64,000 nt of DNA from Planctomycetota bacterium (GCA_029260815.1 JAJDCN010000130.1:929-64928); one strand, 5' to 3'. Positions 22,479-55,409 are shown, numbered from the stretch's first letter. The notes: generated from the sequence alone by a model not told the origin. Made by a program: numbers and translations.

Positions 22479-23723
22479 TTGACCGCCCCCACCGGGCGCG
22501 ACCCGATCCAGGAGCCCGCCATGCGACACGAACGAGCCCTTCCTCACATCCTATCGATCTGCGTTGCCCTCGTCGCGGTTCTTGCCGCCGCCGGAACCTA
22601 TCTGTTCGGTCTCGCCGCCGAGCAAGCGGCACACCAACAGACCCGTGAGGAGCTTTTTCGGACGGTTCAGGCCCGCGAGGCCATAGCCTCCCAAGCCTAT
22701 GAGCTGGCCAATTTAATCGCCAGAAACGCTTCTGCACCCCAGGCGCGCGCAATTGTCGCCGAATCCCTGGGCGATGAAGAGCTTGATGAAGCCGATCTGA
22801 TCTCGCGCATCGATCGGCTGCACCGGCACCGGGCCGTGCTCAAACAGGGCCTTGATCTGGAGCGCAAAAAATTTCAAGACACCTACGACCGGTTCGATAC
22901 AAAGACTACCGAGCTTACCGATGGGTTCCAGCGAGTACACCAACAAGATGCAACGCAGATCGGGTCTCTTCAAAGCCAAATCGAGAATCTAAACGTTGAA
23001 ATGGAAAAGGCGACGGCGACGGCCAGCTCGAATCAAAAAGTGTTGCAACATCACGGGGAACGGCTGGCCGGACAATTCGTGGCGCTAAAAAAAGAATTCG
23101 AGGCATACAAAATCAAGTATCCGCCCCCTCCCCCTGACCCAGAGGATGAGCCAGGGCGGCCGGCGCACAACCCGGAGATGCCCGTGTTGCGCCCGGCGGG
23201 AGAGGTGCTTGAGGTCGATGGTCACAACGCGGTCATCAACCTCGGCGCGGCGGATGGCGTCATGAACGGCATGGTTTTCCTGGTGGTTCAGATGGAAGGC
23301 AATCATTCGACCGGCAAGAGCCTGGCCGTCGTACGGCAGGTCGAGCCCGGCAAAGGAGTTTCTCTGGTCCACTTGTATCAACCCATGGAGGCCGACGTGC
23401 TGATCGACCCTGTTGCGCGCAACCGACCGGTTGTCCAGGGCGATCGGGTGGCCAGTCCGTTTCATGCGCTTCGTCGCGACCTGGTCTTTTTTCTCGATGG
23501 GAGTTTTGTGCAAGTGGATGAATTCGGGTTGCAAACCGATCTGCGAGACCTCCGGCGCCGGATTGAAGAGTACGGCGGGCGCATTGCCGCGTCGCTCACC
23601 GAAGAGACGGACTACGCGGTGTTCGGCAACGAATATGACCCGAAGAATCTGGACCAGGCCAACCGTCTTGGGATCAAGGTCATCCCCAAATCCGGGATCC
23701 TGGTGTTCTTGAGCACGCGATAA
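22479..23723 (+). CDS. Membrane-anchored coiled-coil protein with C-terminal BRCT-like domain (paralog 1)
   Basis: 414 aa with an N-terminal TM helix, a long heptad-rich region, a Pro/acidic linker, a small beta-rich domain ('VINLGAADGVMNGMVFLV') and a C-terminal ~75 aa BRCT-like pattern ('FFLDG...EYGGRI...TDYAVFG'). Confidence 0.6.
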   Translation: MTAPTGRDPIQEPAMRHERALPHILSICVALVAVLAAAGTYLFGLAAEQAAHQQTREELFRTVQAREAIASQAYELANLIARNASAPQARAIVAESLGDEELDEADLISRIDRLHRHRAVLKQGLDLERKKFQDTYDRFDTKTTELTDGFQRVHQQDATQIGSLQSQIENLNVEMEKATATASSNQKVLQHHGERLAGQFVALKKEFEAYKIKYPPPPPDPEDEPGRPAHNPEMPVLRPAGEVLEVDGHNAVINLGAADGVMNGMVFLVVQMEGNHSTGKSLAVVRQVEPGKGVSLVHLYQPMEADVLIDPVARNRPVVQGDRVASPFHALRRDLVFFLDGSFVQVDEFGLQTDLRDLRRRIEEYGGRIAASLTEETDYAVFGNEYDPKNLDQANRLGIKVIPKSGILVFLSTR

Positions 23724-32787: not shown

Positions 32788-34179
32788 TTATGGTTTGAGC
32801 GGGATGACCAGGTAGAAGTCCTTCGTCTCTTCCGGCGGCGCGATGCTGTATTTACCTGGCTCCACTTCGTCCTCCGGCTGGATGCCGCCATCGTCCTTGC
32901 CGTCTTCACCGACCGAATAGAGAACAATCTGTTCTTCGGATCGCTTAAATTCAAACGGCCTTCCGGAGAACGGGTCCGTGATTAGATCCTTATCGAACGC
33001 GCGGAGATCGGCCGGAAAGGCCTTGCCTTCCAGCTGATCTGCCTTGATGTAACAGGCTAGTGCGGTGAGCTTTGCTTGGGCCTCCGCATAAGCGAAACCT
33101 TCCCTGACTCCGACAATGTTGAGATCAAGCACGCGCGCAAGCTTTGCCCAGAAAGGAAAGTTTTTCTTCCTGGGTGTTGGCATGATGTTCTCATAAAAAG
33201 GCTTAACGTACATTTCCATATTCTGTCTGAAGTTCTTCAAATACAGCTGCTTGTCCAGCAGAAGAATCGGACGCTGGAGCAATAACACAAGAGATTTAGA
33301 CGCTGAGAGCGGGCGAGAATCTGCTGAGAGCTGTCTTTTTAGAACGCTGTCAATAATCTGAATACCCAAGACCCGTTCGAAATAGATAGATCGCCCAAGA
33401 GATTCCCGTGTTGGCATAGAAGAGGAGAGCAGAGTTGCTGTTTCTCTAAGGCCCTCGGGCGAAGGTGACCCATGGGACAGGATATGAACCGTCAATCTAC
33501 AGCTCGTATTCTGATGGCCTGTGCGCAACAGCGCAACAACCAATAAGGGCGTTCTCTCGATTGTATTGCTCAGACGGAGGATGTGTGTCGCTTGCTCAAG
33601 AGCCTCGTCTCCATCAGACTTCTGCAGCGCATTGAGGGCACGCATCTGCAGCAATGCTTCAAGAGAACTCAGACCAATTAGTTCAGAAAACTCCACTTGA
33701 AAGCCAAGCTCATAAGGCAGATCGAACCAAAAATCAGGCATCCCCAATCCCTCATCCATCTTGTCGAGAACGGGAGCAAAGCTCTCTAACAATTTCTGAA
33801 TGTCGCTTGGATTTTCTTGCGCCCAATCGAGTGATTCTCTGATTTCATTTTGGCAGTTGTTCCACAACGTTGCCAGGTCTGGATCCTTCTGAATTCGCTC
33901 AAACTCCTGGATGGCTTCAACCAGGAGAAGGGCCCCGTTCTCTTCATCGGGGATAAGTGGGGGGATCATCTCGGCGATCGTGACGGGCTCGCCGCGCGCG
34001 CGGATCTTGTCCAGTTCCGCCTCCACCCGGTCGGAGATGATCCAGCATGCACTGAGCCAGGTGACGATCGGAAGGGCGACCAGGATCAGGACGATAATCA
34101 GGATGACCTTGCGCCGGGTGCGCCTGAGCTTTTCAGGATCCACGAAAACTTCATCGTTGCTGGGGTCCGGCTGCGTCAT
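32788..34179 (-). CDS. Hypothetical membrane-anchored protein
   Basis: 463 aa with an N-terminal TM helix after a basic stretch (RRTRRKVILIIVLILVALPIV) and a large helical extracytoplasmic or cytoplasmic domain. GC is lower than the flanking genes. No family recognised. Confidence 0.5.
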   Translation of the reverse strand: MTQPDPSNDEVFVDPEKLRRTRRKVILIIVLILVALPIVTWLSACWIISDRVEAELDKIRARGEPVTIAEMIPPLIPDEENGALLLVEAIQEFERIQKDPDLATLWNNCQNEIRESLDWAQENPSDIQKLLESFAPVLDKMDEGLGMPDFWFDLPYELGFQVEFSELIGLSSLEALLQMRALNALQKSDGDEALEQATHILRLSNTIERTPLLVVALLRTGHQNTSCRLTVHILSHGSPSPEGLRETATLLSSSMPTRESLGRSIYFERVLGIQIIDSVLKRQLSADSRPLSASKSLVLLLQRPILLLDKQLYLKNFRQNMEMYVKPFYENIMPTPRKKNFPFWAKLARVLDLNIVGVREGFAYAEAQAKLTALACYIKADQLEGKAFPADLRAFDKDLITDPFSGRPFEFKRSEEQIVLYSVGEDGKDDGGIQPEDEVEPGKYSIAPPEETKDFYLVIPLKP

Positions 34180-34259: not shown

Positions 34260-35171
34260 ATGAGGCACTATTTTCAAACTGAAACCGGGGCTCGCGACGT
34301 GAAAAACTTCCAATACCATGCGCCCAACTCCCTGACCGAGGCCTTGACGCTGCTCCACCGGCATGGAAAAAACGCAAACGTCCTGGCCGGCGGGACCGAC
34401 CTGCTGGTCCAGACCAAGCGCCGCGTGGCGGAGCCGCGTTTCGTCATCTCCGCAAAGAAGCTACCGAACCTGGATTACATCGAACAAATCGGCACCGACG
34501 GCCTGAAGATCGGCGCCTTCGCCACGCTGACGGCCGTGCTGGAGAATCCCTTCGCCTGTCGCGCCGCGCGGTTTCTGTCATCGGTGGCCAAGCGCATGGC
34601 CGGTCCCGCGATCCGCAACACCGCCACAGTGGGCGGCAACCTGTGTAACGCATCGCCCGCCGCGGACATGTCTGCCGGGCTGATCGCCCTGGGCGCCAGC
34701 GCGGTGATGGCCAGCGAGGCCCAGGAGCGGGCCATGCCGGTAGAGGCTTTCTTTCTCGGTCCCGGAAAGTCTGCACGCAAACCGGACGAAATGCTCGTCC
34801 GGGTCGACGTGCCCGATGCGGGCCGGCGCTTTTGCGACTACCAACGCCTGTCAGTCCGCAAGGCGATCGATATCGCAATCGTCGGCGTGGCCGTTTCGGC
34901 CCAAATCAGCGAGGCCGGATACGCCTCCGACCTTCGCATCGCCCTGGGCGCCGTGGCGCCGATCCCCCTGCGGGCCAAGCAGGCCGAAACAATCGTCGAA
35001 GGCCAGCCCTTCAGCGAAGAGATGGTCCGTGAGGCTGCAGCAATGGCTGCCTCGGAAAGTTCGCCCATCACCGACGTGCGGGCCTCGGCCGACTACCGCC
35101 GGGACATGGTGGCGGTATTGACCCGCCGGGCCCTTGCCGGTGTCTTCCACGCCGCGAAAGAGGAGGCGTAG
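34260..35171 (+). CDS. Molybdo-hydroxylase FAD-binding subunit (CoxM/XdhB-like)
   Basis: Has FAD_binding_5 motifs 'LAGGTDLLV' and 'ATVGGNLCNASP', and a CO-dehydrogenase flavoprotein C-terminal domain. The start at MRHYF is tentative. Confidence 0.8.
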   Translation: MRHYFQTETGARDVKNFQYHAPNSLTEALTLLHRHGKNANVLAGGTDLLVQTKRRVAEPRFVISAKKLPNLDYIEQIGTDGLKIGAFATLTAVLENPFACRAARFLSSVAKRMAGPAIRNTATVGGNLCNASPAADMSAGLIALGASAVMASEAQERAMPVEAFFLGPGKSARKPDEMLVRVDVPDAGRRFCDYQRLSVRKAIDIAIVGVAVSAQISEAGYASDLRIALGAVAPIPLRAKQAETIVEGQPFSEEMVREAAAMAASESSPITDVRASADYRRDMVAVLTRRALAGVFHAAKEEA

Positions 35172-35172
35172 G

Positions 35173-35670
35173 ATGGCGCAGCATGCGATCCACCTGACCA
35201 TCAATAGCGAACCGCACGAACTGACGGTGCAGCCGAACCGCACACTGCTGGACGTGTTGCGCGAGGATCTGGGACTGACCGGGACCAACAAGAGCTGTGG
35301 CACCGGCGACTGCGGAGCCTGTACGGTGCTCATGGATGGCCTGTCGGTCAACTCCTGCCTGACCCTGGCGGTGGAGGCGGACGGGACCGACGTAGTGACT
35401 GTGGAAGGTCTGGCCCGCGAACGCCAACTCCACCCGGTGCAGGAAGGGTTCGTCAAACACAACGCCATCCAGTGTGGCTTCTGTTCGCCCGGCATGATTA
35501 TGGCGGGCGCGGCCCTGCTGGAGCGCAACCCGTCGCCTACGGACGAAGAGATCCGCCGCGGTCTAGAAGGCAACCTCTGCCGCTGCACCGGCTACACCAA
35601 GATCGTGGACGCGGTGCGTTGGGCGGCGGAGCGGATGAACGACGCGACGCCCGTGGAGGACGCACCATGA
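35173..35670 (+). CDS. Molybdo-hydroxylase [2Fe-2S] small subunit (CoxS-like)
   Basis: 'CGTGDCGACTV' is a plant-type 2Fe-2S site and 'CGFCSPGM...CRCTGY' is the second cluster. Real start is MAQHAI. Confidence 0.85.
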   Translation: MAQHAIHLTINSEPHELTVQPNRTLLDVLREDLGLTGTNKSCGTGDCGACTVLMDGLSVNSCLTLAVEADGTDVVTVEGLARERQLHPVQEGFVKHNAIQCGFCSPGMIMAGAALLERNPSPTDEEIRRGLEGNLCRCTGYTKIVDAVRWAAERMNDATPVEDAP

Positions 35671-37952
35671 GCGAGTTCGCCGTCATCGGCAAGAACTTGC
35701 CCAAGCCCGACGCCTTCGGCAAGGCGACCGGCGCGGCGCTGTACATCCACGACGTGGAGGTCAAGGGCATGCTCCACGCGCGCATCAAGCGCTCCGAACG
35801 GCCCCACGCGCGCATCGTCTCCATCGATACAAGCAAGGCGCGGGAACTGCCCGGCGTCAAAGCAGTCATTACCGCGGCCGACTTTTCGACCGTGACCCCG
35901 TTCGGCTTCCACAAGGACCATCCGCCGCTCAAGGGCGACAAGGTCCGTTCCTACGCGGACGAGATCGCCGCGGTGGCCGCGATAAGCGAGGACATCGCGC
36001 AGGCGGCCTGCGACCTGATCGTTGTAGAGTACGAAGACTTGGAGCCGGTCTTCACTGTGGCCGACGCGATGAAAGAAGGCGCGCCAATTATCCACGAGTC
36101 CAAGGGCACCAATCACGTAGAAGACTACGACTTCAATCACGGCGACGTGGATGCGGCTTTCGCCGAGGCCGACATCGTGTTGGAGGACGAATTTGAGCTG
36201 ACCTTCGTCAACCACTGCTGCCTGGGTCCCACCTGCATGATCGCCGAGTACGACCTGAACGAGAATCTCACCTTGTGGTCGCCCACGCAGATCCCGTTCC
36301 TGTTGCAGCGCGACTTGGCGGAGTGCCTGGGGATTCCTGCGACGAAGACCAAGATTATCCAGCCGCTGATCGGCGGAGCTTTCGGCAAGGGATTGGACAT
36401 GTACGCCTTCGAGCCGGTCTGCTGCATGCTGTCCATGAAGGCCGGACGTCCGGTGCGATTGTTGTTCAATCGCGAGGAAGAATTTCGCTACACACCCACG
36501 CGCCAACCGGTAAAGGGCCGTCTTAAGACCGGAGCCAAATCAGACGGTACATTGTTGGCGCGGGAGATGCGCGTATTGTTGGACATCGGGGCGTATGTGA
36601 GCTGGGGCGTGCTTACACCGGTGGTGGGGATGCATACGAACAGTTCGCTCTACCGCGTACCCAACGTCCGCTACCATGGCGAGGCCTATTATTCCAACAA
36701 CCCGTCGTCCGGCGCCATGCGCGGCTACGGCAATCCGCAGGCCACGTTCATGATCGAGACGCACATGGACATGTTGGCCGAGCGGTTGGGCATCGCGCCC
36801 GACGAGGTGCGCCGACGCAACGCGAACCGACCGGGTGACGAGACGCCGTCGGGCGCGAAGTATACGACGTGTGGTTTGCCCGAATGCATCGACATCATCG
36901 CGCGGGAAAGCGGGATCAACGCCGAGCGGGAGCGCACCGACGGCGGCCCGATCGCGCGAGGGATCGGTATGGCCTCCACGCTGAACGTGGCGGGCGGGGC
37001 GCGAATCTATCGCTCCGACGGTTGCGGCGCGATCGTTAAAGTAGACGACTTCGGCAAGGTCGGCCTCGTAACGGGTGCCACGGAGATCGGCCAGGGGACC
37101 GACCTGATCCTCACGCAAATCGTGGCCGAGGAGTTGGGCGTACCATTCGAGGACGTGCGGATCGTGCCGGCGGATACGGATATCAAGCCCTGGGACGTGG
37201 GCTGTCACGCTTCCCGTACCGCTTTCATCGCCGGCAACGCGGCGCGGATGGCAGCAGGCCAGGCGCGAGACAAGATCGTACTCCACGCGGCGAAGATGCT
37301 GGAGGCCCGACCGGAAGAGATCGACATTCGCGAGGGCAACGTGTTCGTCAGCGGTCAGGCGGACCGCTCGTTGCCGATCGGCAAGGTGGTCCGCGCGATC
37401 CACTTCCGTGGCGGCGGCAGCATCGTTACGACCGAGGCGTTCTACGACCCGCCCAACGAGATGACCGACGCGGGCCACAAAGGCAACATCTCGGCCACCT
37501 ACGGCTTTGGGACCCAGGCCGCGGCGGTCGAGGTGGACACCGAGACCGGTCAGGTCACCGTGAAAAAAATCTGGGCAGCGCACGACGTGGGACGCGTGCT
37601 CTCACCCATCGGAGCCGAAGGGCAGGTCGAGGGCGGAATCTCTATGGGCATGGGCTACGCATTGACCGAACAATTGATCGTGGAAGAAGGCGAGGTCAAG
37701 AACCCGACGTTCCTGGACTACCGGATCGCGACGTCATTGGACATGCCCGAGATCGAGACGCATTTTGTTGAGACCATTGACCCGGAAGGCCCGTTCGGCG
37801 CCAAGGGTTTGGGCGAGATGGGCTCGGTGCCCACGGCGCCGGCCATCGCCAATGCCGTCTTCGACGCCATCGGCGTGCGCATTCATAGCCTTCCGATCAC
37901 ACCCGAAAAAATTCTCCACGCACTCAAGGAAAAAAATCGCAGTGAGTCGTAA
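35667..37952 (+). CDS. Molybdopterin-dependent oxidoreductase large subunit (xanthine dehydrogenase/aldehyde oxidase family)
   Basis: 762 aa from MSEFAVIGK, overlapping the small-subunit stop (ATGA). Carries Ald_Xan_dh_C/C2 family motifs ('GGAFGKG', 'GQGTDLILTQIVAEELG', 'GAKGLGE'). Confidence 0.85.
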   Translation: MSEFAVIGKNLPKPDAFGKATGAALYIHDVEVKGMLHARIKRSERPHARIVSIDTSKARELPGVKAVITAADFSTVTPFGFHKDHPPLKGDKVRSYADEIAAVAAISEDIAQAACDLIVVEYEDLEPVFTVADAMKEGAPIIHESKGTNHVEDYDFNHGDVDAAFAEADIVLEDEFELTFVNHCCLGPTCMIAEYDLNENLTLWSPTQIPFLLQRDLAECLGIPATKTKIIQPLIGGAFGKGLDMYAFEPVCCMLSMKAGRPVRLLFNREEEFRYTPTRQPVKGRLKTGAKSDGTLLAREMRVLLDIGAYVSWGVLTPVVGMHTNSSLYRVPNVRYHGEAYYSNNPSSGAMRGYGNPQATFMIETHMDMLAERLGIAPDEVRRRNANRPGDETPSGAKYTTCGLPECIDIIARESGINAERERTDGGPIARGIGMASTLNVAGGARIYRSDGCGAIVKVDDFGKVGLVTGATEIGQGTDLILTQIVAEELGVPFEDVRIVPADTDIKPWDVGCHASRTAFIAGNAARMAAGQARDKIVLHAAKMLEARPEEIDIREGNVFVSGQADRSLPIGKVVRAIHFRGGGSIVTTEAFYDPPNEMTDAGHKGNISATYGFGTQAAAVEVDTETGQVTVKKIWAAHDVGRVLSPIGAEGQVEGGISMGMGYALTEQLIVEEGEVKNPTFLDYRIATSLDMPEIETHFVETIDPEGPFGAKGLGEMGSVPTAPAIANAVFDAIGVRIHSLPITPEKILHALKEKNRSES

Positions 37953-40026
37953 TCTCAACGACCTGTTTTCTCCGGAAACGATCGCCGTCGTGGGAGCCTC
38001 CCGCAACGAAGCGAAGCTCGGCCACAAACTTCTGAACAACGTTATCGAAGCCGGCTTTTCCGGAGACTTGGTTCCGATCAACCCGGCCGGCGGGGAGATC
38101 CTCGGCCGCGAGGTGAAGAAGTCCTTGATGGAGATCGGCAAACCCATCGACCTGTGCCTGATCTCCATCCCCAACGAACACGTGGTCTCGGCCGTCTCCG
38201 AAGCCGCCGCGGCCAACGTTCGCACGGCGGTGGTTTTGTCCTCCGGCTTCGGCGAGGCGGGCGAAGCGGGGCGCGCCATGCAGGCGGAGCTGGCCGCGAT
38301 CCTGGAAGACACGCAGATGCGCCTGATCGGACCAAACTGCATGGGTCTCATTGATCGACACCACGCGCTCAACGCCAGCTATTTCTGGGACATTCAGACC
38401 GAGCCGGGCGACATTAGCTTCGTTTCCCAGTCGGGCGCCTACGGTGGTATTTTGTTTCGTGAGATCGCCGCGCGGGGACTGGGTCTGGCAAAGTTCGCCA
38501 GTATCGGGAACCAGTTAAACGTGGAGCACGCGGATCTGCTGGAGGTTCTGGCCGACGATGACGACACGCGCGTGATCGCGCTCTTCGTGGAACAGATCAA
38601 AGACGGCACGCGATTCATCGAAGCCGCCGCGCGCGCCGCCGCGCACAAGCCGGTAATCGCACTGAAGGCAGGCCGGACCGACGCGGGCCATCGGGCCGCG
38701 CTGTCTCACACCGGATCCATGGCCGGAACGTTCGATATCTATCGGGCGGCCATGAAAAAAGCGGGTGTCCTGCTGTTTACCGACACCGATGCCTTCTTCG
38801 ATGCGGCGGCGGTCCTGTCTCATTCCGGCTCGGCCCTGCCGACCAACGACGCAGTGGCGATCTTGACCATCTCCGGCGGGCCCTCCGTGGCCGCGGCGGA
38901 CCGGGCGGAGGAGATCGGACTGCACGTGCCGCCGCTCTCCGATGCGTTGCAGGAAAAACTTTGCGGCCTCATTCCCGCCTTTGGGGCTGCGGGCAACCCG
39001 GTGGACATGACGCCGCAGATCGACCCAGCGCAGTACGGCGCGTGCGTACGCGAAGTCTATGCCGCTGGCGAAGTCGGGGGTGTGATCGCCATCAACGTGG
39101 GTCTGGACAGCGTCGAATTCGGCGAGGCCTTTGCCAGGGCCCAAGTGGAAACCGGCTTGCCCACGGTCTCCTTTGTCGTGGATGCGCCGTTGATCGCCGC
39201 GTCTTTCGCTCGACAGAAGATTCCGAACTTTCCGACACCAGAGCGCGCGATCAGCGCTTACAAGGCCTTGACGGACTACCGGCGCGTGCACGAATCTTTC
39301 AGCAAGCCGTGTACATCCAGGGTGGCGCCGACCCGGTCGCGAGCCCTGACTCAGGCGATCTCCATCGCGGCTCCGCTGCCGCCGGGACGACCCTACGCGT
39401 TTGACGAACATCTCTCGAAACAGATCCTGGCGGAATATGGGATCGAGATTGTCGAAGAGAAATTGGTGGAGAACATCAAGGAAGCGGTGGATTGCGCCCG
39501 GTTCATCGGATACCCGGTGGCCTTGAAGATTTGCGTGCCGGGCATTGTTCACAAGACCGACGCCGACGGGCTTGCCCTGAACCTGCACAACGAAAAAGAG
39601 CTGCGCGAAGCCTTCCGCGTGATGGAAGACCGGTTTGGGACCGGGCGACAGTACGTGATTCAACGGATGCTGGCGCCCGGGCGCGAGATCCTGATCGGTG
39701 GCGGACACGATGAGGTCTTTGGCAAAACGATCACCGTGGGGATCGGGGGGACTCTCACGGAGATCATCCATGATACAGTAACGCGGATCTGTCCGATCAG
39801 CGACATCGAAGCGGAGGAGATGCTCCAGGAGCTGCGCGGGTCGCAGATCTTCGGCGAGTTCCGTGGCAAGCCGCCGGTGCAGCGAAAGCGGGTCATCGAC
39901 GCCCTGACGAACCTGTCGGATCTGCTGATGGGCAACGAGCGAATCCTGGAGATCGACGTCAATCCGGTCATCGTCACCGAAGAGGATCTGATCGCGGTCG
40001 ATGCCCTGGTGGTAATCGAAAACTAG
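37942..40026 (+). CDS. ADP-forming acyl-CoA synthetase (acetate--CoA ligase [ADP-forming] family, fused alpha/beta)
   Basis: Has a GTG start overlapping the large-subunit stop. Carries a CoA-binding domain ('IAVVGASRNEAKLGHKLLNN'), a succinyl-CoA-synthetase-like ligase domain with catalytic His region ('ALSHTGSMAG') and a C-terminal ATP-grasp domain. Confidence 0.8.
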   Translation: MSRNLNDLFSPETIAVVGASRNEAKLGHKLLNNVIEAGFSGDLVPINPAGGEILGREVKKSLMEIGKPIDLCLISIPNEHVVSAVSEAAAANVRTAVVLSSGFGEAGEAGRAMQAELAAILEDTQMRLIGPNCMGLIDRHHALNASYFWDIQTEPGDISFVSQSGAYGGILFREIAARGLGLAKFASIGNQLNVEHADLLEVLADDDDTRVIALFVEQIKDGTRFIEAAARAAAHKPVIALKAGRTDAGHRAALSHTGSMAGTFDIYRAAMKKAGVLLFTDTDAFFDAAAVLSHSGSALPTNDAVAILTISGGPSVAAADRAEEIGLHVPPLSDALQEKLCGLIPAFGAAGNPVDMTPQIDPAQYGACVREVYAAGEVGGVIAINVGLDSVEFGEAFARAQVETGLPTVSFVVDAPLIAASFARQKIPNFPTPERAISAYKALTDYRRVHESFSKPCTSRVAPTRSRALTQAISIAAPLPPGRPYAFDEHLSKQILAEYGIEIVEEKLVENIKEAVDCARFIGYPVALKICVPGIVHKTDADGLALNLHNEKELREAFRVMEDRFGTGRQYVIQRMLAPGREILIGGGHDEVFGKTITVGIGGTLTEIIHDTVTRICPISDIEAEEMLQELRGSQIFGEFRGKPPVQRKRVIDALTNLSDLLMGNERILEIDVNPVIVTEEDLIAVDALVVIEN

Positions 40027-40034
40027 GGGTTCCG

Positions 40035-40463
40035 ATGACACACTTCAAGCACGTGGAACGGGTGGCCATCGCGGTCGAGTCGATCGAAAAGGCACAGGCT
40101 TTTTTCGAGAAACTGGGCGCGCAATTCCAACCGGAAGAAACCATCGACGAAGTGAAGCTGCGCTACCGTCCGTTCAAGATCGGCCCCAGCACCCTGGAGC
40201 TGTTGGAGAGCACCGAGAAAGACAGCGTTATCGACCGGTTCATTCAAACCCGCGGCGAAGGCGTCCATCATGTGACCCTGGAGGTCGACGACCTGGACGC
40301 GGCGATTGCCGATTGTGAGTCGAAGGGAATTGCCATCGCGCACCGGATCGATTATCCGGCGGAAACGCAATTTGAGGGCTACCACTGGCGGGAGGCGTTT
40401 ATCCACCCCAAAGACGCTTTTGGGGTCCTGATTCATCTGGCGGAAAAGAAAAAGGTATCGTAA
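40035..40463 (+). CDS. VOC-family protein, probable methylmalonyl-CoA epimerase-like
   Basis: 142 aa with a glyoxalase/VOC fold ('HVERVAIAV', 'GVHHVTLEVDD'). Calling it an epimerase is inferred from its CoA-pathway neighbours. Confidence 0.65.
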   Translation: MTHFKHVERVAIAVESIEKAQAFFEKLGAQFQPEETIDEVKLRYRPFKIGPSTLELLESTEKDSVIDRFIQTRGEGVHHVTLEVDDLDAAIADCESKGIAIAHRIDYPAETQFEGYHWREAFIHPKDAFGVLIHLAEKKKVS

Positions 40464-40467
40464 GGTC

Positions 40468-41607
40468 GTGGACTTCCGGCTCACCGAAGAACAGGAGATC
40501 CTCAAGAAGTCGGTCGCCGATTTCGTGGACGCCGAGGTCGCGCCCATCGCCGCCGAGTTAGATGAGAAGGGCGAGTTTCCCCACGACCTGTTCCGGCGGA
40601 TGGGCGAAATGGGCTATTACGGCTTGCGCTACCCGGAGAGCTACGGCGGCTCGGGGCTGGACTCGTTGACCTATTGCGTGATGATCGAAGAGATCGCTCG
40701 CGGTTCCCTGTCGGTGGCGGCCACCTGCGCCATGCAGTCGTTGATGGGCACCTACTTTGTCTTTCGCTTTGGCACGGAAGAACAGAAACAGCGACTGCTG
40801 GTCTCAGCCCTGCGAGGCGAAAAACTGGGGACCTTCGGCATGACGGAGGCGAACGCGGGCAGCGACATCTCCGCCATGGAAACCACGGCCGTGCGGGACG
40901 GTGAGGACTACGTGCTCAACGGCTCGAAGATGTGGTTGACCTCCGGCACGGTGGCGGACTTCTTCACGATCGCCGCGGTAACGGACAAACAGAAAGGCGC
41001 CGATGGGTTCTCGCTGTTCCTGATCGAAAAGGGCACGCCCGGGTTCAACGTGGGCAAGAAGATCGACAAGCTCGGTGTCCGGGCCTCGGAAACCACGGAA
41101 TTGTCCCTGGACGACTGCCACGTCCCGGCGGGCAACCTCTTGGGCGAAGAGAACGCGGGCTACGACTGCCTGAAAGAGATCCTGTGCGAGATTCGGACCA
41201 TGACCGGCGCGCTATCGTTGGGCCTGGCCCGCGCGGCGCTGGCCGAAGCGTTGCGCTATTCGCAGGAACGCAAGCAGTTCGGCAAGCCGATCGGTCGTTT
41301 CCAGGCGATCCAGTTCAAGCTGGCCGAGATGGCCACGCGGATCGAATCGGCGCGCCATTTGGTGAACCACGCGGCGTGGCTCGCCGACAACGGCCTGCCG
41401 AACACCAAACAGGCCGCCATGGCCAAGCTGGTTGCCTCGGAGGCGGCGGTCTTTGTGGCCGATGAGGCCTCGCGGATCTTCGCGTCCTACGGGTTCGCCA
41501 TGGAATATCCGGTCCAGCGCTACCTGCGGGACGCGCGGTTTTTGTTGATCGGCGGCGGAACCTCTGAAATATTGAACGTGATTATTGCCAAGGAAATTGG
41601 AGCGTAG
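40468..41607 (+). CDS. Acyl-CoA dehydrogenase
   Basis: 379 aa (GTG start). 'FGMTEANAGSD' and the C-terminal 'YxxxxxEGTSEIxxxxIA' region ('IGGGTSEILNVIIAKEI') are ACAD signatures. Confidence 0.85.
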   Translation: MDFRLTEEQEILKKSVADFVDAEVAPIAAELDEKGEFPHDLFRRMGEMGYYGLRYPESYGGSGLDSLTYCVMIEEIARGSLSVAATCAMQSLMGTYFVFRFGTEEQKQRLLVSALRGEKLGTFGMTEANAGSDISAMETTAVRDGEDYVLNGSKMWLTSGTVADFFTIAAVTDKQKGADGFSLFLIEKGTPGFNVGKKIDKLGVRASETTELSLDDCHVPAGNLLGEENAGYDCLKEILCEIRTMTGALSLGLARAALAEALRYSQERKQFGKPIGRFQAIQFKLAEMATRIESARHLVNHAAWLADNGLPNTKQAAMAKLVASEAAVFVADEASRIFASYGFAMEYPVQRYLRDARFLLIGGGTSEILNVIIAKEIGA

Positions 41608-41622
41608 AAAGGAGCAAAGCAG

Positions 41623-42072
41623 ATGGCCTATCAGTGGAAAGGGCTGAAGTTTTCGCAGTTCGAGATGGGGCAGGCCTATACCACCGCCTCGCGGACGATC
41701 ACCGAAGCGGACATCGTCAACTTCGCCGGGATCTCGGGAGATTATTACCCGTTGCACACCAACGAGGAATTCGCCAAGGAGACGCCGTTTAAGACGCGCA
41801 TCGGACACGGCGCGCTCAGCTTCGCCGTGGCAACCGGACTGGGCAACCAGTTGGGTATCTTCGAAGGGACGACCCTGGCGTTGATGTCCACGCTGACCAA
41901 GTACACCGGCGCCGTGCTCCCGGGCGATACGGTCACCATGACGATGACGGTAAAGGAAACCAAACCCTCCTCCAAAGGCGGTCGGGGCGTCGTGACGTTC
42001 ACCACCGTGCTGAACAAGCAGACCGGCGATCAGGTCTTCGAAGGGGAATGGGTACTGATGATGAGAGACTAG
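41623..42072 (+). CDS. MaoC-like (R)-specific enoyl-CoA hydratase / hot-dog fold dehydratase
   Basis: 149 aa. 'DYYPLHTNEEFAKETPFKTRIGHGAL' is the MaoC dehydratase motif. Confidence 0.8.
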   Translation: MAYQWKGLKFSQFEMGQAYTTASRTITEADIVNFAGISGDYYPLHTNEEFAKETPFKTRIGHGALSFAVATGLGNQLGIFEGTTLALMSTLTKYTGAVLPGDTVTMTMTVKETKPSSKGGRGVVTFTTVLNKQTGDQVFEGEWVLMMRD

Positions 42073-42082
42073 GAGAAGAACC

Positions 42083-42823
42083 ATGCAAGAACATCTGAAA
42101 GACAAAGTCGCGATCATCACCGGCGCCGCCGGCGGGATCGGGTCGGCAACCGCCCAGCGGTTTGTCGAAGAAGGAGCGAAAGTTGTACTGGCTGATTTTG
42201 ACCTGGAGGGGGCGCAAAAAGTCGCCACCGAATTGGGCGACAACGCCGTGGCCGTCCAGGTGGACGTATCGGACAAGGACTCCGTGGTGGCGATGGTCCA
42301 GACCGCTGCGGAAAAATTCGGCACGGTCCACATCCTGATCAACAACGCCGGCATCGCTCGGGACGCGTTCTGTAAAAAAATGAGCGTGGAGCAGTGGGAC
42401 CAAGTGGTCAACGTGAACATGAAGGGCACGTTCCTATGCTGCCAGGCGGTCATCCCGATCTTCGCGGAGAATAAAGGCGGCAAGATCGTCAACACCGCGT
42501 CCATTGGCGCCCTGGGCAACATGGGGCAGACCAACTACTCCGCGAGCAAGGCGGGGATCATCGGCATGACCAAGACCCTGGCGCTGGAATTGGCGCGAGA
42601 CGGCGTGAACGTCAACTGCGTTTCGCCCGGCGCCACGGACACGCAACTGTTCGACGGCGTGCCTGAGGAGATCAAAGATGGAATCAAATCGAAAATCCCG
42701 TTTCGTCGCTTTGCCCAACCGATCGACATCGCGAACCTGCACGCGTTCCTGGTGTCGGACGGGGCGGCGTATATTACCGGTCAGACGATCTTTTGCGACG
42801 GTGGCATTTCCGTCGGGATCTGA
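42083..42823 (+). CDS. SDR-family oxidoreductase (3-oxoacyl-reductase / 3-hydroxyacyl-CoA dehydrogenase-like)
   Basis: 246 aa with 'TGAAGGIGSA' (TGxxxGxG), 'NNAG' and a catalytic 'YSASKAG' YxxxK motif. Confidence 0.85.
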   Translation: MQEHLKDKVAIITGAAGGIGSATAQRFVEEGAKVVLADFDLEGAQKVATELGDNAVAVQVDVSDKDSVVAMVQTAAEKFGTVHILINNAGIARDAFCKKMSVEQWDQVVNVNMKGTFLCCQAVIPIFAENKGGKIVNTASIGALGNMGQTNYSASKAGIIGMTKTLALELARDGVNVNCVSPGATDTQLFDGVPEEIKDGIKSKIPFRRFAQPIDIANLHAFLVSDGAAYITGQTIFCDGGISVGI

Positions 42824-44505: not shown

Positions 44506-44814
44506 ATGGAAAAAACAAGCCCGCACATGGCCAAACATATATTCGTCTGCGGCAACCAGCGAGCGCCGGAGATGCCGAAGCGCTGCTGCGGTGAAGACGG
44601 GCAGAAGATCCGCGCCGTGCTCAAACAGCGCGTCGAAGAGATGGGCCTCAAGGAAAAGATCCGCGTCTCACTGACCGGGTGCCTCAGCCCTTGCGAAGCG
44701 GGGCCCAACGTCATGATCTATCCGGACAATGTCTGGTACAAGCACGTTTCTCTGGCCGACGTGGACGAAATCATTCGTCAGCAGGTCGAGCCCTATCTTC
44801 AGGACGACACCTAG
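44506..44814 (+). CDS. Thioredoxin-like [2Fe-2S] ferredoxin
   Basis: 'HIFVCGNQR...CCGEDG...LTGCLSPCEAGPNVMIYPD' is the NuoE/thioredoxin-like ferredoxin family pattern. The start is ambiguous (44506 or 44527). Confidence 0.65.
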   Translation: MEKTSPHMAKHIFVCGNQRAPEMPKRCCGEDGQKIRAVLKQRVEEMGLKEKIRVSLTGCLSPCEAGPNVMIYPDNVWYKHVSLADVDEIIRQQVEPYLQDDT

Positions 44815-44849
44815 TCTTTTTGCGTGCTCCGCACGCAGGATATAAACCT

Positions 44850-47699
44850 ATGGCCGCCGTGGCCTTCTCCGATCTCCGCGACGCAATCGAAGGGGAACTC
44901 CTTTTCGATGAAATTACCCGTGCGCTATATGCCACGGACGCCTCCATCTACCGGATCCTCCCCGCGGCCGTGGCTTTGCCCAAAACTACCGCCGACGTCC
45001 AGCAGATCGTCCGCTTCGCCCTCGACGGCGGCCTTTCGGTCGTGCCCCGGGGCGGGGGTAGCGGACTGGCTGGCGAGGCGGTGGGGCCGGGAATCGTCAT
45101 TGATTTCTCCCGCTTCATGCATCGCAAGATCGAAATCCATCCGCACGATCGGACCGTGACCGTCCAGGCCGGAGTCGTCCTGTCCCGGATGAACAAGGCC
45201 CTGGCAGAGCACGGGTTGACCTTCGGTCCGGACCCCGCCAGCGCCGACCGCTGCACGATCGGCGGCATGATCGCCAACAACTCCACCGGCGCACACTCTA
45301 TCAAGTACGGCTGTACCCGCGAGCAGATCGTGCGCCTCAAGTTGGTCCTGGCCAATGGTACTTGCGTGGAAGTGGGAGAGGGTCTGCCCGTTCCCGAATC
45401 CATGCGCGCTCTGGACGAAGCGCTTCGGAAGCGCCTCATCCGCGACGCGGCGTTGATCGAAACCCATACGCCAAAGGTTGGGCGCAACCGCAGCGGCTAT
45501 CTGCTGGACGGTATTCTGGACGGCGATCGGGTCGACTATCCGCGCCTCTTGGCCGCCAGCGAAGGAACCCTGGCGATTGTGACCGAGGCAACGCTGCGAG
45601 TCGTGGCGCTGCCCAAGGCCAAGGGCATCGTCGTCCTGGGCTTCGGGTCTTTGGACGCCGCGGCGCGGGCGGTGGTGGACGTGTTGGAAGATCAACCCAG
45701 TACGGTGGAGATGATCGACGACAAGGTTATCGATATCGGTACCGAACTGACCGAGCGGTTTGGACAACTCATCCCGGCCGAGGCCCGCTTCGTACTCGTC
45801 GTCGAGCGCGACGGCGAAACGGCCGCCGAAGTGCAAAAAAAGCTGGCGCAGACGTCTCGCCGCGTGGCCGGTACCGGTAGCGTGATCGTGGAAGACGCTT
45901 CGGACCAGGATCTAATCTGGGCCACGCGCAACGCGGCGGAGCCGCTGCTGTATCGCAAGCGTTGGCCGCTACAGCCGACTTGCTTCGTGGAAGACGTAGC
46001 GGTCGCACCGGAGAAACTAGCCATTTATTTGGAACGCCAGGGCGACATCCTGGCTAAATACAGCGTGGACTCCGCCTATTACGCGCACGCCGGACACGGC
46101 GAATTGCACGTAAAACCCTATCTAAACTTGCACACTCCCGAAGACCGCAACAAGATGAAAGCGATCGCCGAAGAGGTCCACACGCTGGCGACCGAACTGG
46201 GCGGCACGATCAGCGGAGAACATGGCGAAGGGCTGCTGCGGGCCCAATTCATTCCGCAACAATACGGTGCGCTGTACGACAGCTTTGTGCAGATCAAGAA
46301 CCTGTTCGATCCCCACGGGACCCTCAACCCCGGAAAAAAGATCAACGACACGCCGGACCTGCTGTTGCAAAACCTGCGCGCCGAGTCCGAGCCGAGATTC
46401 CCGCTCCATCAATATCGCTATGAAGCCGAAGGGATCGACGAGATTGTCGATCGATGCAACGGCTGCGCGGCCTGCCGGACGCAGGAGAGTAAGTTCGACA
46501 TGTGTCCCATCTTCAAGGTCGTCGGTGACGAGACGGCCGCGCCGCGGGCCAAGGCGAACCTGATGCGCGAACTGCTCAGCGGCAATCTGGACCCTACGAC
46601 TGTTCGCACCCACCGCTTCAAGGAGGTCGCGCATCTGTGCGTCAACTGCAAGATGTGCCACCTGGAATGCCCCAGCGGCGTGGACATCCCAAAGCTCATG
46701 CTCGACGCCAAGGCCATGCACGTGGAGCAGATGGGATTGACCGTTGCCGAGCGACTGCTCATTCACACCGAAGGTTTTGCCCGGACCGCGCGCTGGATTG
46801 CGCCGCTGGTGAATTGGGGCGCGCGGGTGCCTCTGTTCCGAGCCGCCGCGCAAAAGGTCACCGGCATTGACCGCCGCCGTCGATTGCCGGCGTTTTCTTC
46901 CAAGCCCTTTCTCGCGCGCAAGCGGAAGACGTCTTCGAGCACGTCGGAGCGAAAGGTTGCGTACTTTGTGGACCTCTACGCCAATTACAACGACCCGGCC
47001 CTTGCGGAAGATTTAGTTTCGGTATTGGAACACAATGGTGTGCAGGTTGTCGTCCCGGAGGCCCAGGTCGGCTGCGGGATGCCGGCGATCGACAACGGCG
47101 ACCTGAAGAGCGCCCGCCACGCGATCGATGCCAATCTGAATGCCCTTGCCCGCTACGTGGAAGAAGGCTATACTGTCGTGAGCGCCGAGCCCACCGCGAC
47201 GCTCACCCTCAAAGAGGAGTACGGGTCGATTGCGGACGATCCTCGGGCCGGGGCTTTGGCCAATGCGGCCGTGGACGTGTGCGATTACCTGTGGGAGATG
47301 CACAAGTCCGGGACGTTGAAGGAAGACTTCCGCGAAATCCGGATGACCTTGGGCTACCATGCCCCGTGCCACCTGAAGGCGCTCCAGATCGGCCGCCCGG
47401 GAATGGAGTTGGTTCGATTGATTCCCGGTGTGCAAGTGGAGACGATCGACGAGGGGTGTTGCGGGATCGCGGGCACCTATGGTTTCAAACAATCGGGTTA
47501 CGACAATTCGATGAAGATCGGGGCCGGCCTGTTCGGTGCGCTTGCCAAGAGCGACATTCGGTCGGGCCTGACCGAATGCAGTACGTGTAAGATGCAGATG
47601 GAGCAGGGTGCGGGCAAACGCACGCTCCATCCGATTACCGTCCTGGCCGCGGGTTACGGTCTTCGGACGCTTGAGATCGACGGGTGGGCCGTCGGGTGA
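44850..47699 (+). CDS. Fused FAD-binding oxidase / (Fe-S) CCG-domain oxidoreductase (GlcD-GlcF-like, D-2-hydroxyacid dehydrogenase family)
   Basis: 949 aa from MAAVAF. Has FAD_binding_4 ('VVPRGGGSGLAGEAVG') and an FAD-oxidase C-terminal domain, followed by two 4Fe-4S CxxCxxCxxxCP motifs ('CNGCAACRTQ', 'CVNCKMCHLECP') and CCG cysteine-rich domains. Confidence 0.85.
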   Translation: MAAVAFSDLRDAIEGELLFDEITRALYATDASIYRILPAAVALPKTTADVQQIVRFALDGGLSVVPRGGGSGLAGEAVGPGIVIDFSRFMHRKIEIHPHDRTVTVQAGVVLSRMNKALAEHGLTFGPDPASADRCTIGGMIANNSTGAHSIKYGCTREQIVRLKLVLANGTCVEVGEGLPVPESMRALDEALRKRLIRDAALIETHTPKVGRNRSGYLLDGILDGDRVDYPRLLAASEGTLAIVTEATLRVVALPKAKGIVVLGFGSLDAAARAVVDVLEDQPSTVEMIDDKVIDIGTELTERFGQLIPAEARFVLVVERDGETAAEVQKKLAQTSRRVAGTGSVIVEDASDQDLIWATRNAAEPLLYRKRWPLQPTCFVEDVAVAPEKLAIYLERQGDILAKYSVDSAYYAHAGHGELHVKPYLNLHTPEDRNKMKAIAEEVHTLATELGGTISGEHGEGLLRAQFIPQQYGALYDSFVQIKNLFDPHGTLNPGKKINDTPDLLLQNLRAESEPRFPLHQYRYEAEGIDEIVDRCNGCAACRTQESKFDMCPIFKVVGDETAAPRAKANLMRELLSGNLDPTTVRTHRFKEVAHLCVNCKMCHLECPSGVDIPKLMLDAKAMHVEQMGLTVAERLLIHTEGFARTARWIAPLVNWGARVPLFRAAAQKVTGIDRRRRLPAFSSKPFLARKRKTSSSTSERKVAYFVDLYANYNDPALAEDLVSVLEHNGVQVVVPEAQVGCGMPAIDNGDLKSARHAIDANLNALARYVEEGYTVVSAEPTATLTLKEEYGSIADDPRAGALANAAVDVCDYLWEMHKSGTLKEDFREIRMTLGYHAPCHLKALQIGRPGMELVRLIPGVQVETIDEGCCGIAGTYGFKQSGYDNSMKIGAGLFGALAKSDIRSGLTECSTCKMQMEQGAGKRTLHPITVLAAGYGLRTLEIDGWAVG

Positions 47700-53276: not shown

Positions 53277-53361
53277 GGTGCGAGAGGGGGGACTTGAACC
53301 CCCACGAGTTGCCTCACAGGATCCTAAATCCTGCGCGTCTGCCGATTCCGCCACTCTCGCC
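53277..53361 (-). tRNA. tRNA-Leu (anticodon UAG), type II with long variable arm, CCA encoded
   Basis: Folded by hand from the reverse complement. The 7-bp acceptor GCGAGAG pairs with CUCUCGC, the anticodon stem CAGGA pairs with UCCUG, the loop UUUAGGA gives anticodon UAG, the T-arm is GGGGG-UUCAAGU-CCCCC, there is a 13-nt variable arm, and the 3' end is ACCA. Confidence 0.85.
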
Positions 53362-54210: not shown

Positions 54211-55409
54211 AAAAGCCTCGCATCTGGGCCGAAATCAATCTGGAAGACCTGCGGCACAATCTGCAGGCGATCAAGAGACACCTGGCGGGCCGGGCCAAGG
54301 TCATGGCTGTGGTCAAGGCCGACGCCTACGGTCACGGGTCGGTCCCCGTCTCGATCGCGCTGTGGGAGTTCGGCGTCGACATGTTTGGCGTGGGCGATTC
54401 CAGTGAAGCGTTGGAGCTGCGCGGTGTGGGAATCAACACGCCGATTGTCATCCTCGGCGGAATCGTCGATGAGGAGATTGAACGCGTGGTCAAGGCGGAC
54501 ATTACGCCGACGCTGCACTCGGTTCAGGTCGGTCAGTTGGTCAATGCCGAGGCCCGGCGGCAAGGCAAAGTGCTCAACGTCCACGTCATGATCGATACGG
54601 GGATGGGGCGGTTGGGCACCTCGCCTCGTCATGCGCTGGAGTTGATTGAGGCGCTGTCGAAGCTTGAAAATCTTCGGTTGGAAGGTATCTGTAGCCACTT
54701 CTCCTCGTCCCCGTTCGACCGGGACTTTACACGAAACCAGTTTGCCGAGTTCCAGCAGGTGGTGGCAGCAGCCGAGACGGCCGGGTATCGCATTCCGATT
54801 CGTCACATGGCGAACTCTGCGGGTTGTCTTCTGTATGAAGAGACGGCGTTGGACATGGTCCGGATCGGCGGCGCCCTGCTGGGCATGGATCCGGCGGGCG
54901 TTTATGCGGAGCAATTTGGATTGCGCCCAATCTTGAGCTTCCGGAGTCAGATCGTTTTTTTGAAGTGGATTCCCAAGGGGTCTCCCGTCGGATACGACCG
55001 CACGTTTATTGCGCCGCGGGATACGCGGGTTGCCACGACACCGGTGGGGTACCACGACGGATATTCCTATTTGTTATCGAATCGGGGATCTGTTATCATA
55101 CGGGGCAGGCGGGTTCCGGTGATCGGCGGCGTGACGATGGACTATACCATGCTGGACGTGACCGATCTTCCGGAGGTGGCGGTGGGGGATGAGATCGTGT
55201 TGATCGGCTCCCAGGGCAACGAGACCATATCTGCGGTGGACGTGGCACAGGTGATCGGCACCAACCCCTACGAGGTAACCTGCCTGTTGGGCAAGCGGGT
55301 CCGGCGGATCCATATCCGCAACGCGTTGCACAGTTCCGCGCCACCTGCCCAAGATGCCGAATCCGTTCCACAGGCCGCTCCGATCCAATACAGGTCTGCC
55401 GACGCATGA
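54207..55409 (+). CDS. alr: Alanine racemase
   Basis: 400 aa. 'AVVKADAYGHG' carries the PLP-Lys motif, and the C-terminal beta domain is present. ATGA overlaps on both sides. Confidence 0.9.
   Translation: MKKPRIWAEINLEDLRHNLQAIKRHLAGRAKVMAVVKADAYGHGSVPVSIALWEFGVDMFGVGDSSEALELRGVGINTPIVILGGIVDEEIERVVKADITPTLHSVQVGQLVNAEARRQGKVLNVHVMIDTGMGRLGTSPRHALELIEALSKLENLRLEGICSHFSSSPFDRDFTRNQFAEFQQVVAAAETAGYRIPIRHMANSAGCLLYEETALDMVRIGGALLGMDPAGVYAEQFGLRPILSFRSQIVFLKWIPKGSPVGYDRTFIAPRDTRVATTPVGYHDGYSYLLSNRGSVIIRGRRVPVIGGVTMDYTMLDVTDLPEVAVGDEIVLIGSQGNETISAVDVAQVIGTNPYEVTCLLGKRVRRIHIRNALHSSAPPAQDAESVPQAAPIQYRSADA

Follow-up and report, generated by a model that had tools for sequence, protein, structure and literature searches.

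A 64,000-nucleotide stretch of DNA from a Planctomycetota bacterium (GCA_029260815.1 JAJDCN010000130.1:929-64928), referred to in full as the window, contains eight plus-strand open reading frames (ORFs) between positions 34299 and 42823, with intergenic spacing of -11 to +15 nt. They encode a three-subunit molybdenum (Mo) hydroxylase, an ADP-forming acyl-CoA synthetase, a VOC-fold protein, an acyl-CoA dehydrogenase (ACAD), a MaoC-type hydratase and an SDR, and we ask here which pathway they serve. The genes and their Pfam support are as follows:

34299 (GTG)-35171, plus strand: FAD-binding medium subunit, CoxM/CutM type, 290 aa (PF00941, PF03450); alternative ATG at 34260
35173-35670, plus strand: 2x[2Fe-2S] small subunit, 165 aa (PF00111, PF01799)
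35667-37952, plus strand: molybdopterin-binding large (Mo) subunit, 761 aa (PF01315, PF02738, PF20256)
37942-40026, plus strand: fused alpha-beta NDP(ADP)-forming acyl-CoA synthetase, 694 aa (PF13380, PF13607, PF19045, PF13549)
40035-40463, plus strand: VOC-fold protein, methylmalonyl-CoA epimerase-like, 142 aa (PF13669, PF00903)
40468-41607, plus strand: ACAD, 379 aa (all ACAD domains found)
41623-42072, plus strand: MaoC-type (R)-specific enoyl-CoA hydratase, 149 aa (PF01575, E = 5e-24)
42083-42823, plus strand: classical SDR, 246 aa (PF13561, 234 bits; PF00106)

The junctions were read directly from the sequence. The FAD subunit gene ends with TAG (35169-71) and the 2Fe-2S gene starts with ATG at 35173 after a 1-nt gap, with GAGGAGG upstream. 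The 2Fe-2S and Mo genes overlap by 4 nt in an ATGA (35667-70), and the synthetase GTG (37942) precedes the Mo stop codon TAA (37950-52), giving an overlap of 11 nt. From the synthetase through the VOC, ACAD, MaoC and SDR genes the gaps are 8, 4, 15 and 10 nt, and efp (ATG 42874) begins after a 50-nt gap 3' of the SDR gene. Gene starts are preceded by Shine-Dalgarno-like purine runs. A promoter and terminator scan yielded nothing informative on the plus strand, with no terminator-like site between the eight genes, which most likely constitute one operon. A first-pass annotation, made from the sequence alone, had described the genes as a translationally coupled, co-oriented unit of eight, and the overlaps and 1-15-nt gaps bear this out. 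The 3' boundary of that unit stands at 42823. Its 5' boundary had been set at 34260, the position of an ATG, but GTG 34299 is the more likely predicted start, because the resulting 290 aa fits the 285-294 aa of relatives and aligns with CutM from end to end. The Mo, synthetase (from GTG 37942), VOC, MaoC and SDR proteins are identical to independent public gene calls, and all window proteins that were looked up are singletons at 90% identity. The predicted functional linkage of the eight genes is more than chance, since an unrelated metagenome contig (L171) has seven of them in identical order.

Domain assignments of all eight proteins were upheld by Pfam and NCBIfam (E values of 1e-14 to 1e-197). 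Every score against the curated NCBIfam equivalog models lies under its cutoff, the exception among NCBIfam models being two broad SDR subfamily models that pass and carry no specific name. As such, no protein of the operon can be named by homology alone.

The first three proteins contain the domains of a three-subunit xanthine-oxidase-family enzyme (FAD_binding_5 with CO_deh_flav_C, Fer2 with Fer2_2, and hammerhead with MoCoBD_1/2; Pfam E values of 1e-9 to 1e-76), and the domains agree with the subunit order FAD, 2Fe-2S, Mo given in the first-pass annotation. The translated 2Fe-2S subunit has the Cys motifs CGTGDCGAC...C, CGFCSPG and CRCTGY. In alignments the Mo subunit keeps the cofactor motifs PTQIPF, IGGAFGK, AMRGYG and EIGQG, as well as the canonical catalytic Glu717 within GAKGLGE. 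The FAD subunit is colinear from end to end with CutM (287 aa), while its alignment with HcrB ends at residue 118; it has 3 Cys residues and no Cys-rich [4Fe-4S] insert. Comparison of about 75 related FAD subunits showed this Cys-rich [4Fe-4S] loop only with a second Mo paralogue (Mo#2), which some loci have, and never in the clade of the window. Because the cofactor motifs and catalytic Glu are intact and the FAD subunit lacks the insert, the enzyme is expected to be an ordinary water-dependent hydroxylase.

A different assignment, to 4-hydroxybenzoyl-CoA reductase (Hcr), draws on HcrA being both the best curated model (TIGR03194) and the best PDB match of the Mo subunit (1RM6_A, 36% identity over the full length), and on the many homologues that carry this name automatically at JGI. 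However, the TIGR03194 score is 658.3 bits against a cutoff of 994.55, and benzoyl-CoA pathway genes were not seen in the window flanks. Taken with the 36% identity and the missing insert of the FAD subunit, the score effectively refutes Hcr; the first-pass annotation had already argued from the missing insert that this was no canonical Hcr. Xanthine dehydrogenase and carbon monoxide (CO) dehydrogenase were likewise rejected. None of the XdhA, PucD and CoxL models reaches its cutoff (xanthine dehydrogenase models NF043082, 607.6 vs 780 bits, and TIGR03196, 486 vs 784; CoxL TIGR02416, 322 vs 991), and the CO dehydrogenase loop VAYRCSFR, which had been suggested earlier as a residue pattern to look for, is absent, with neither AYRC nor CSFR present in the Mo protein. 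That the enzyme is any of these three has next to no probability.

The Mo subunit is instead placed by sequence comparison in a large uncharacterised sister clade related to HcrA, where it groups with enzymes associated with indolepyruvate:ferredoxin oxidoreductase (IOR), hydantoinase-like and mutase genes, including those of Desulfocarbo indianensis and Dethiosulfatarculus sandiegensis. HcrA, Mo#2 and the window clade are 35-39% identical to each other. In a neighbour-joining tree the Thauera HcrA joins Mo#2 by a short branch only (0.017), and the deep branching is weakly resolved. Thousands of homologues share 54-59% identity with the window Mo subunit, chiefly in Chloroflexota metagenome-assembled genomes, and many are automatically labelled Hcr. 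No relative above 60% identity was found in a metagenome scan, and tblastn against plasmids gave only unannotated homologues at about 42% identity, mostly from Sinorhizobium.

Gene neighbourhoods of the relatives were compared across species-representative genomes and metagenomes, with 80 loci taken from each. The loci were mapped by tblastn with a reference set in which Pfam, NCBIfam or precomputed annotation had fixed the families. Considering loci of at least 12 kb, 25 of the 34 whose Mo subunit is at least 47% identical to that of the window have an IOR, hydantoinase-like, B12-mutase or family-III CoA-transferase gene within 10 kb, compared with 4 of 22 below 47% identity. The metagenome loci show the same neighbourhood again. 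The set conserved around the window's clade consists of IorA, IorB, a HisC-like aminotransferase, a TrpB-like PLP enzyme, a hydantoinase A/B pair, a family-III CoA-transferase, a B12 acyl-CoA mutase, VOC, one or more ACADs, MaoC, SDR and thiolase. IorA of the related loci clears the IOR_alpha equivalog cutoff (669.5 vs 650.9), the TrpB-like enzyme matches NF009057 at 699 bits (cutoff 366), and the hydantoinase pair resembles caprolactamase most, HydB being nearest to caprolactamase beta.

The best syntenic match is L171, in which the order is IorA-IorB-FAD-FeS-Mo-aminotransferase-VOC-ACAD-MaoC-SDR-SDR-thiolase-...-B12-...-mutase. The seven window genes present there are 42-65% identical, and an aminotransferase stands in place of the synthetase. 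L170 and L004 are close variants with an additional family-III CoA-transferase. Two loci come from cultured Desulfarculales: that of D. indianensis (L022) contains HydA-HydB, a PaaK-like ligase, a TRAP transporter, FAD-FeS-Mo and XdhC, and that of D. sandiegensis (L029) contains a mutase, HydA-HydB, a PaaK-like ligase, a binding protein and FAD-FeS-Mo. Both resemble the iaa cluster in arrangement, and D. indianensis has been named as a carrier of IaaF paralogues (PMC8360864). The first-pass annotation would have been undermined by downstream genes unrelated to the Mo enzyme elsewhere; in other genomes these genes are in fact linked to it.

Several loci of this survey hold further features of their own. 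The TrpB-like PLP enzyme is located just upstream of IorA in L084 (3771-5138), L004 (about 2512) and L017 (about 3776), an arrangement that hints at free indole being fed into the pathway via tryptophan. Anaerolineae clusters of tryptophan/indoleacetate type (L084:17050-20807; also L001-L003, L017, L085, L090, L091, L093 and L095) encode a second Hcr-like enzyme, about 39% identical to the window Mo subunit, whose FAD subunit of 328-330 aa has the Cys-rich [4Fe-4S] insert and which is followed by VOC and B12-binding genes. This second enzyme may act reductively on an aryl-CoA product such as 2-aminobenzoyl-CoA. Loci of Methylomirabilota/Rokubacteria type (L012, L015, L038, L098, L102, L117, L121, L167) have the order B12, mutase, CoA-transferase, Mo, and their Mo gene has no adjacent FAD or FeS subunit genes.

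The ACAD gives a second indication of the pathway. Its C-terminal active-site motif, LLIGGGTSEI, has GGG where YEG is expected; the C-terminal end reads ...RDARFLLIGGGTSEI, and the terminal stretch with the GGG motif is ...RDARFLLIGGGTSEILNVII. GGG in place of the catalytic YEG is a trait of all orthologues of IaaF, the decarboxylating benzylmalonyl-CoA dehydrogenase, which is encoded in iaa operons and also takes alkylmalonyl-CoAs with chains of at least four carbons (PMC8360864). The same GGG is found in 113 of the 120 closest homologues of the window ACAD, one of which (63% identity) carries the JGI name benzylmalonyl-CoA dehydrogenase, and in ACADs beside Mo, hydantoinase and mutase genes in Anaerolineae, Planctomycetota and Methylomirabilota-type loci. 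ACADs from unrelated contexts (L006, L086) retain FEG or YEG. Orthologues at 58-66% identity adjoin mutase, lactamase, CoA-transferase and IOR genes, whereas that of the window adjoins the Mo enzyme, with no mutase or lactamase. Since the catalytic Glu is missing, ordinary alpha,beta-dehydrogenation is ruled out for this protein. An ordinary ACAD of the butyryl-CoA dehydrogenase type was rejected, and the beta-oxidation-like dehydrogenase of the first-pass annotation has to be replaced by a putative IaaF-like enzyme of the decarboxylating alkyl/benzylmalonyl-CoA type. No electron transfer flavoprotein gene was found among the window ORFs scanned.

The missing Glu also bears on whether the Mo enzyme could be an aldehyde oxidoreductase, with the acid it forms activated by the synthetase and then degraded by ordinary beta-oxidation. 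The gene order would fit a sequence from acid to CoA ester to dehydrogenase, hydratase and dehydrogenase, and the small and FAD subunits score well on the glyceraldehyde dehydrogenase subunit models (218 and 213 bits). Yet all three subunits fall under the cutoffs of those models, the best model of the large subunit is HcrA, the relatives adjoin IOR, which makes CoA esters and not aldehydes, and the ACAD lacks the Glu that normal alpha,beta-dehydrogenation needs. A glyceraldehyde or aldehyde oxidoreductase was rejected on the model scores, and we consider the whole scheme very improbable.

With a decarboxylating ACAD, a role of the VOC protein as epimerase of a substituted malonyl-CoA becomes plausible. 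Against the methylmalonyl-CoA epimerase model TIGR03081 it scores 92.3 bits over its full length (cutoff 114.95), as a VOC-fold relative and not a member of that family, and orthologues (53-60% identity) hold the same position in L004 and L171. The translated MaoC protein has a hot-dog domain and the hydratase-2 motif SGDYYPLH with the catalytic Asp and His; orthologues (53-60%) lie downstream of Mo genes in L004, L006, L007, L008, L010, L013, L170 and L171. The SDR contains TGAAGGIG, NNAG and YSASK and an Asp after beta-2 (VVLAD), and its orthologues (52-62%) come after MaoC in all of these loci except L008.

The neighbours of the relatives can be compared with the known anaerobic degradation of indoleacetate. 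A 2012 paper on Aromatoleum (Ebenau-Jehle) reportedly described an iaa cluster with a xanthine-oxidase-family Mo enzyme for the first step. In the iaa route indoleacetyl-CoA is converted to 2-oxoindoleacetyl-CoA, then by lactam hydrolysis to (2-aminophenyl)succinyl-CoA, and by CoA transfer and B12-dependent rearrangement to (2-aminobenzyl)malonyl-CoA; IaaF carries out an oxidative decarboxylation, and beta-oxidation leads to 2-aminobenzoyl-CoA (PMC8360864, PMC5214803). The IOR, lactamase, mutase and CoA-transferase genes of the relatives are the gene set of the Aromatoleum iaa pathway, and the Mo dehydrogenase of the window belongs to a clade found in iaa-like clusters. From these neighbourhoods and the GGG motif of the ACAD, the operon is probably a partial, trimmed iaa-type operon for anaerobic indoleacetate degradation, equipped with an ADP-forming synthetase. 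The first-pass annotation had considered the substrate not deducible, whereas the context of the relatives and the GGG motif do point to indoleacetate.

Several observations weigh against this assignment. When the 64-kb window was searched by tblastn with representative sequences, no lactamase, B12 mutase, CoA-transferase, thiolase, IOR or aminotransferase was found. The hydantoinase-like lactamase, the B12 mutase (IaaGH) and the family-III CoA-transferase (IaaL) expected of an iaa cluster are thus missing, which leaves the ring opening and the rearrangement at the heart of the route without genes there. The operon is flanked by housekeeping genes, the VOC protein scores under the methylmalonyl-CoA epimerase cutoff, and we know of no biochemically characterised member of the window's Mo clade. 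Both IOR and NDP-forming synthetases accept a broad range of aryl substrates. The window synthetase resembles Mo-adjacent relatives (42-49% identity) no more than generic ones (47-49%) and so looks independently recruited. Elsewhere it co-occurs with IOR (Planctomycetota loci) or a PaaK-like ligase (Methylomirabilota loci), where it would not be needed for activation. The lactamase, mutase and CoA-transferase may be encoded elsewhere in the genome, comparable to the split arrangement of L035 and L068. The single catabolic route proposed in the first-pass annotation, with hydroxylation of a ring or heterocycle ahead of processing as a CoA thioester, is supported for a heterocycle by the linkage of these genes in other genomes, but a complete pathway would also need a lactamase, mutase, CoA-transferase and thiolase, which the window does not have.

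The same enzyme logic could also serve another heteroaryl- or aryl-acyl-CoA, derived for example from histidine, tyrosine or a xenobiotic N-heterocycle, with another 2-substituted malonyl-CoA downstream. IOR accepts all arylpyruvates, P. furiosus ACS2 accepts several aryl-acyl-CoAs and IaaF takes alkylmalonyl-CoAs of at least four carbons; the Mo clade is uncharacterised, and the TrpB-like, IOR and lactamase genes that tie the relatives to indole are not in the window. The full set of the relatives, however, parallels the indole route step by step (lactamase, family-III CoA-transferase, B12 mutase, GGG-type ACAD), their TrpB-like enzyme adjoins an IOR that clears its equivalog cutoff, and only a benzo-fused pyrrole gives an arylsuccinyl-CoA when its lactam ring is opened. 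A substrate other than indoleacetate is therefore unlikely, if less so than the enzyme assignments discarded above.

The synthetase belongs to the NDP-forming (ACD) superfamily, of which it has the CoA-binding, CoA-ligase and ATP-grasp domains as well as a phosphohistidine loop, ALSHTGSMAG. Its full-length alignment with the ADP-forming 4-hydroxybutyrate-CoA ligase 8WZU pairs SHTGSMAG with the loop of that enzyme, and its scores lie far under the cutoff of every curated equivalog. The fused alpha/beta ADP-forming enzyme recognised in the first-pass annotation is confirmed by this alignment and the Pfam domains. Relatives of the synthetase adjoin either IOR and an aminotransferase or the Mo enzyme. 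In the window it takes the exact slot of the aminotransferase of L171 and L004, and tblastn detected no IOR, aminotransferase or AMP-forming ligase in the 64 kb; together these suggest that it replaces the module generating indoleacetyl-CoA. In Planctomycetota loci the synthetase gene comes after IorAB-FAD-FeS-Mo-RidA, and in L117 and L121 a PaaK-like gene, identified by tblastn with Desulfarculales ligases, lies between the Mo and synthetase genes.

The direction in which the synthetase would run is a separate question. P. furiosus ACS2, an NDP-forming synthetase co-operonic with IOR, accepts indoleacetyl-CoA and several aryl-acyl-CoAs and splits indoleacetyl-CoA, making ATP (PMC3942289). The window enzyme could likewise cleave a thioester and recover ATP from acetyl-CoA, 2-aminobenzoyl-CoA or indoleacetyl-CoA, the substrate entering as a CoA ester made elsewhere. 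This would alter the synthetase step only and is compatible with the iaa-type assignment. The direction used by ACS2 supports it, as does the activating enzyme already present in the Planctomycetota (IorAB) and Methylomirabilota-type (PaaK-like) loci. So does L086, the closest synthetase homologue with long context, which adjoins an aminotransferase and IorAB in the classical fermentative arrangement. On the other side stand the lack of IOR, aminotransferase and AMP-forming ligase in the window, the position of the gene exactly where L171 and L004 have the aminotransferase, and the best solved relative, 8WZU, a physiological ADP-forming ligase. We therefore lean, with modest preference, towards activation of free indoleacetate, and regard thioester cleavage as a serious contender that falls somewhat short of an even chance. 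The ATP conservation proposed in the first-pass annotation is possible, but the closest solved relative works in the CoA-ester-forming direction.

L086 was also considered as a close relative of the window because efp is adjacent there too, and was rejected, its EF-P being 41% identical and its ACAD having a normal YEG. The synthetases most similar by identity (48-49%) lie in a different cluster (L087:1-12088, L088:6849-12097), consisting of a PaaK-like ligase, VOC, MmgE/PrpD, the synthetase and an NMT1-type transporter, with a fused XDH-family protein of 1275 aa and a hydantoinase A/B pair upstream in L087. This cluster may serve another aryl-acid pathway.

From the gene structure, domain identities, motif states and conserved neighbourhoods observed, we infer substrates, a step order and a synthetase direction for the iaa-type operon as follows. 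Indoleacetate would be joined to CoA, for which the ADP-forming synthetase is the sole candidate in the operon; the relatives would use an aminotransferase and IOR starting from tryptophan, or a PaaK-like AMP-forming ligase. The Mo enzyme, a putative C2 hydroxylase of indoleacetyl-CoA (or indoleacetate), would then hydroxylate C2 of the pyrrole ring with oxygen from water to give 2-oxoindole-acetyl-CoA, electrons passing in the ordinary direction from Mo through two [2Fe-2S] clusters and FAD to an acceptor. In the third to fifth steps an ATP-dependent lactamase, which is not in the window, would open the lactam to (2-aminophenyl)succinyl-CoA, and a family-III CoA-transferase and a B12 mutase, neither of them in the window, would yield (2-aminobenzyl)malonyl-CoA. 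This compound, or a related 2-substituted acyl-CoA, is the substrate proposed for epimerisation by the VOC protein, after which the GGG-type ACAD would form 2-aminocinnamoyl-CoA by oxidative decarboxylation. For the eighth and ninth steps MaoC is proposed as the 2-aminocinnamoyl-CoA hydratase and the SDR as an NAD-dependent 3-hydroxyacyl-CoA dehydrogenase oxidising the hydratase product to the 3-oxoacyl-CoA. A thiolase, again not in the window, would finally release 2-aminobenzoyl-CoA and acetyl-CoA.

The iaa cluster of Aromatoleum aromaticum EbN1 and A. evansii (Ebenau-Jehle 2012; Schuhle 2016; PMC8360864) has a CoA-activating enzyme, a GGG-type IaaF and beta-oxidation-like steps. Reportedly it also includes a xanthine-oxidase-family Mo dehydrogenase, and the window combines such a Mo enzyme with putative counterparts of the others. 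The window differs in lacking the lactamase, mutase, CoA-transferase, binding protein and regulators, in having a VOC epimerase-like gene, and in a candidate activating enzyme that is an ADP-forming synthetase, whereas IaaB of Aromatoleum is a PaaK-type AMP-forming ligase. The window ACAD is likened to IaaF (A. aromaticum CAI07262; PMC8360864) by its length of about 380 aa, the GGG for YEG and its place beside pathway genes. The closest characterised and solved relative of the Mo enzyme, HcrABC of Thauera aromatica (1RM6, 1SB3), shares the three-subunit architecture and 36% identity, and acts on an aryl-CoA thioester, as proposed for the window enzyme. However, Hcr has GAKEASE where the window has GAKGLGE, the window FAD subunit lacks the [4Fe-4S] insert, and the window clade differs from Hcr at W313, N356, D460-D461-F462 and H514-A515. 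The synthetase shares its five-domain structure and phosphohistidine loop with P. furiosus ACS2 and Nitrosopumilus 8WZU, and its alpha-beta fusion order with the latter; unlike either, it is translationally coupled to a Mo hydroxylase gene.

Indoleacetate, the plant hormone auxin, is derived from tryptophan, and both are abundant signalling and nutrient molecules. The genetics of their anoxic fate comes only from a few cultured denitrifiers and sulfate reducers and one archaeon. A 2018 review still described how indolic compounds are 2-hydroxylated anaerobically as a black box (PMC6221969). While the iaa pathway and IaaF are already published, what is of interest beyond them is the mis-annotated Mo clade, the interchangeable indoleacetyl-CoA module and the breadth among uncultured anaerobes. 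As the window and about 170 related loci show, the Mo hydroxylase and the IaaF-type dehydrogenase occur commonly across several phyla of uncultured anaerobes. Indoleacetyl-CoA seems to be made by an interchangeable module: an aminotransferase with IOR in some loci, a PaaK-type ligase in others and an ADP-forming synthetase in the window, where the ATP cost of activation would be halved. The Mo clade is routinely mislabelled 4-hydroxybenzoyl-CoA reductase, and this distorts inferences on anaerobic aromatic degradation drawn from metagenomes.

A broader proposal, possible but rather doubtful as a whole, is that a widespread HcrA-related clade lacking the [4Fe-4S] cluster hydroxylates indoleacetyl-CoA with water and, together with the synthetase, provides an ATP-thrifty or ATP-yielding, O2-independent route for auxin and tryptophan. 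Its hosts would be uncultivated Chloroflexota, Planctomycetota, Methylomirabilota and the window's own lineage, and indole might enter through the TrpB-like enzyme of the relatives. If true, it would supply enzymes for the anaerobic 2-hydroxylation of indolic compounds.

Outside the operon, the upstream flank consists of NadE and a divergent gene and the downstream flank of EF-P and a CDF transporter, with PolA, Rho, HemA, QueG and Alr encoded farther away. The divergent gene (32788-34179, minus strand, 463 aa), immediately upstream of the operon, encodes a hydrophobic N-terminal segment and has no Pfam match; its promoter-like hexamers sit in the intergenic region shared with the operon. Located 1.9 kb downstream of the operon, a gene at 44679-47699 (plus strand, 1006 aa) encodes an FAD-linked oxidase (FAD_binding_4 and FAD-oxidase_C) fused to 4Fe-4S dicluster and CCG domains that is glycolate or D-lactate dehydrogenase-like; a link to the operon is unlikely, and it is probably unrelated. 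Two ORFs of coding-type composition, 55406-58582 (plus strand, 1059 aa) and 22431-23720 (plus strand, 430 aa), match no Pfam family at E <= 1e-5. An Rfam search of the whole window found no Moco or other riboswitch, its sole match being a tRNA gene at 53279-53360 on the minus strand.

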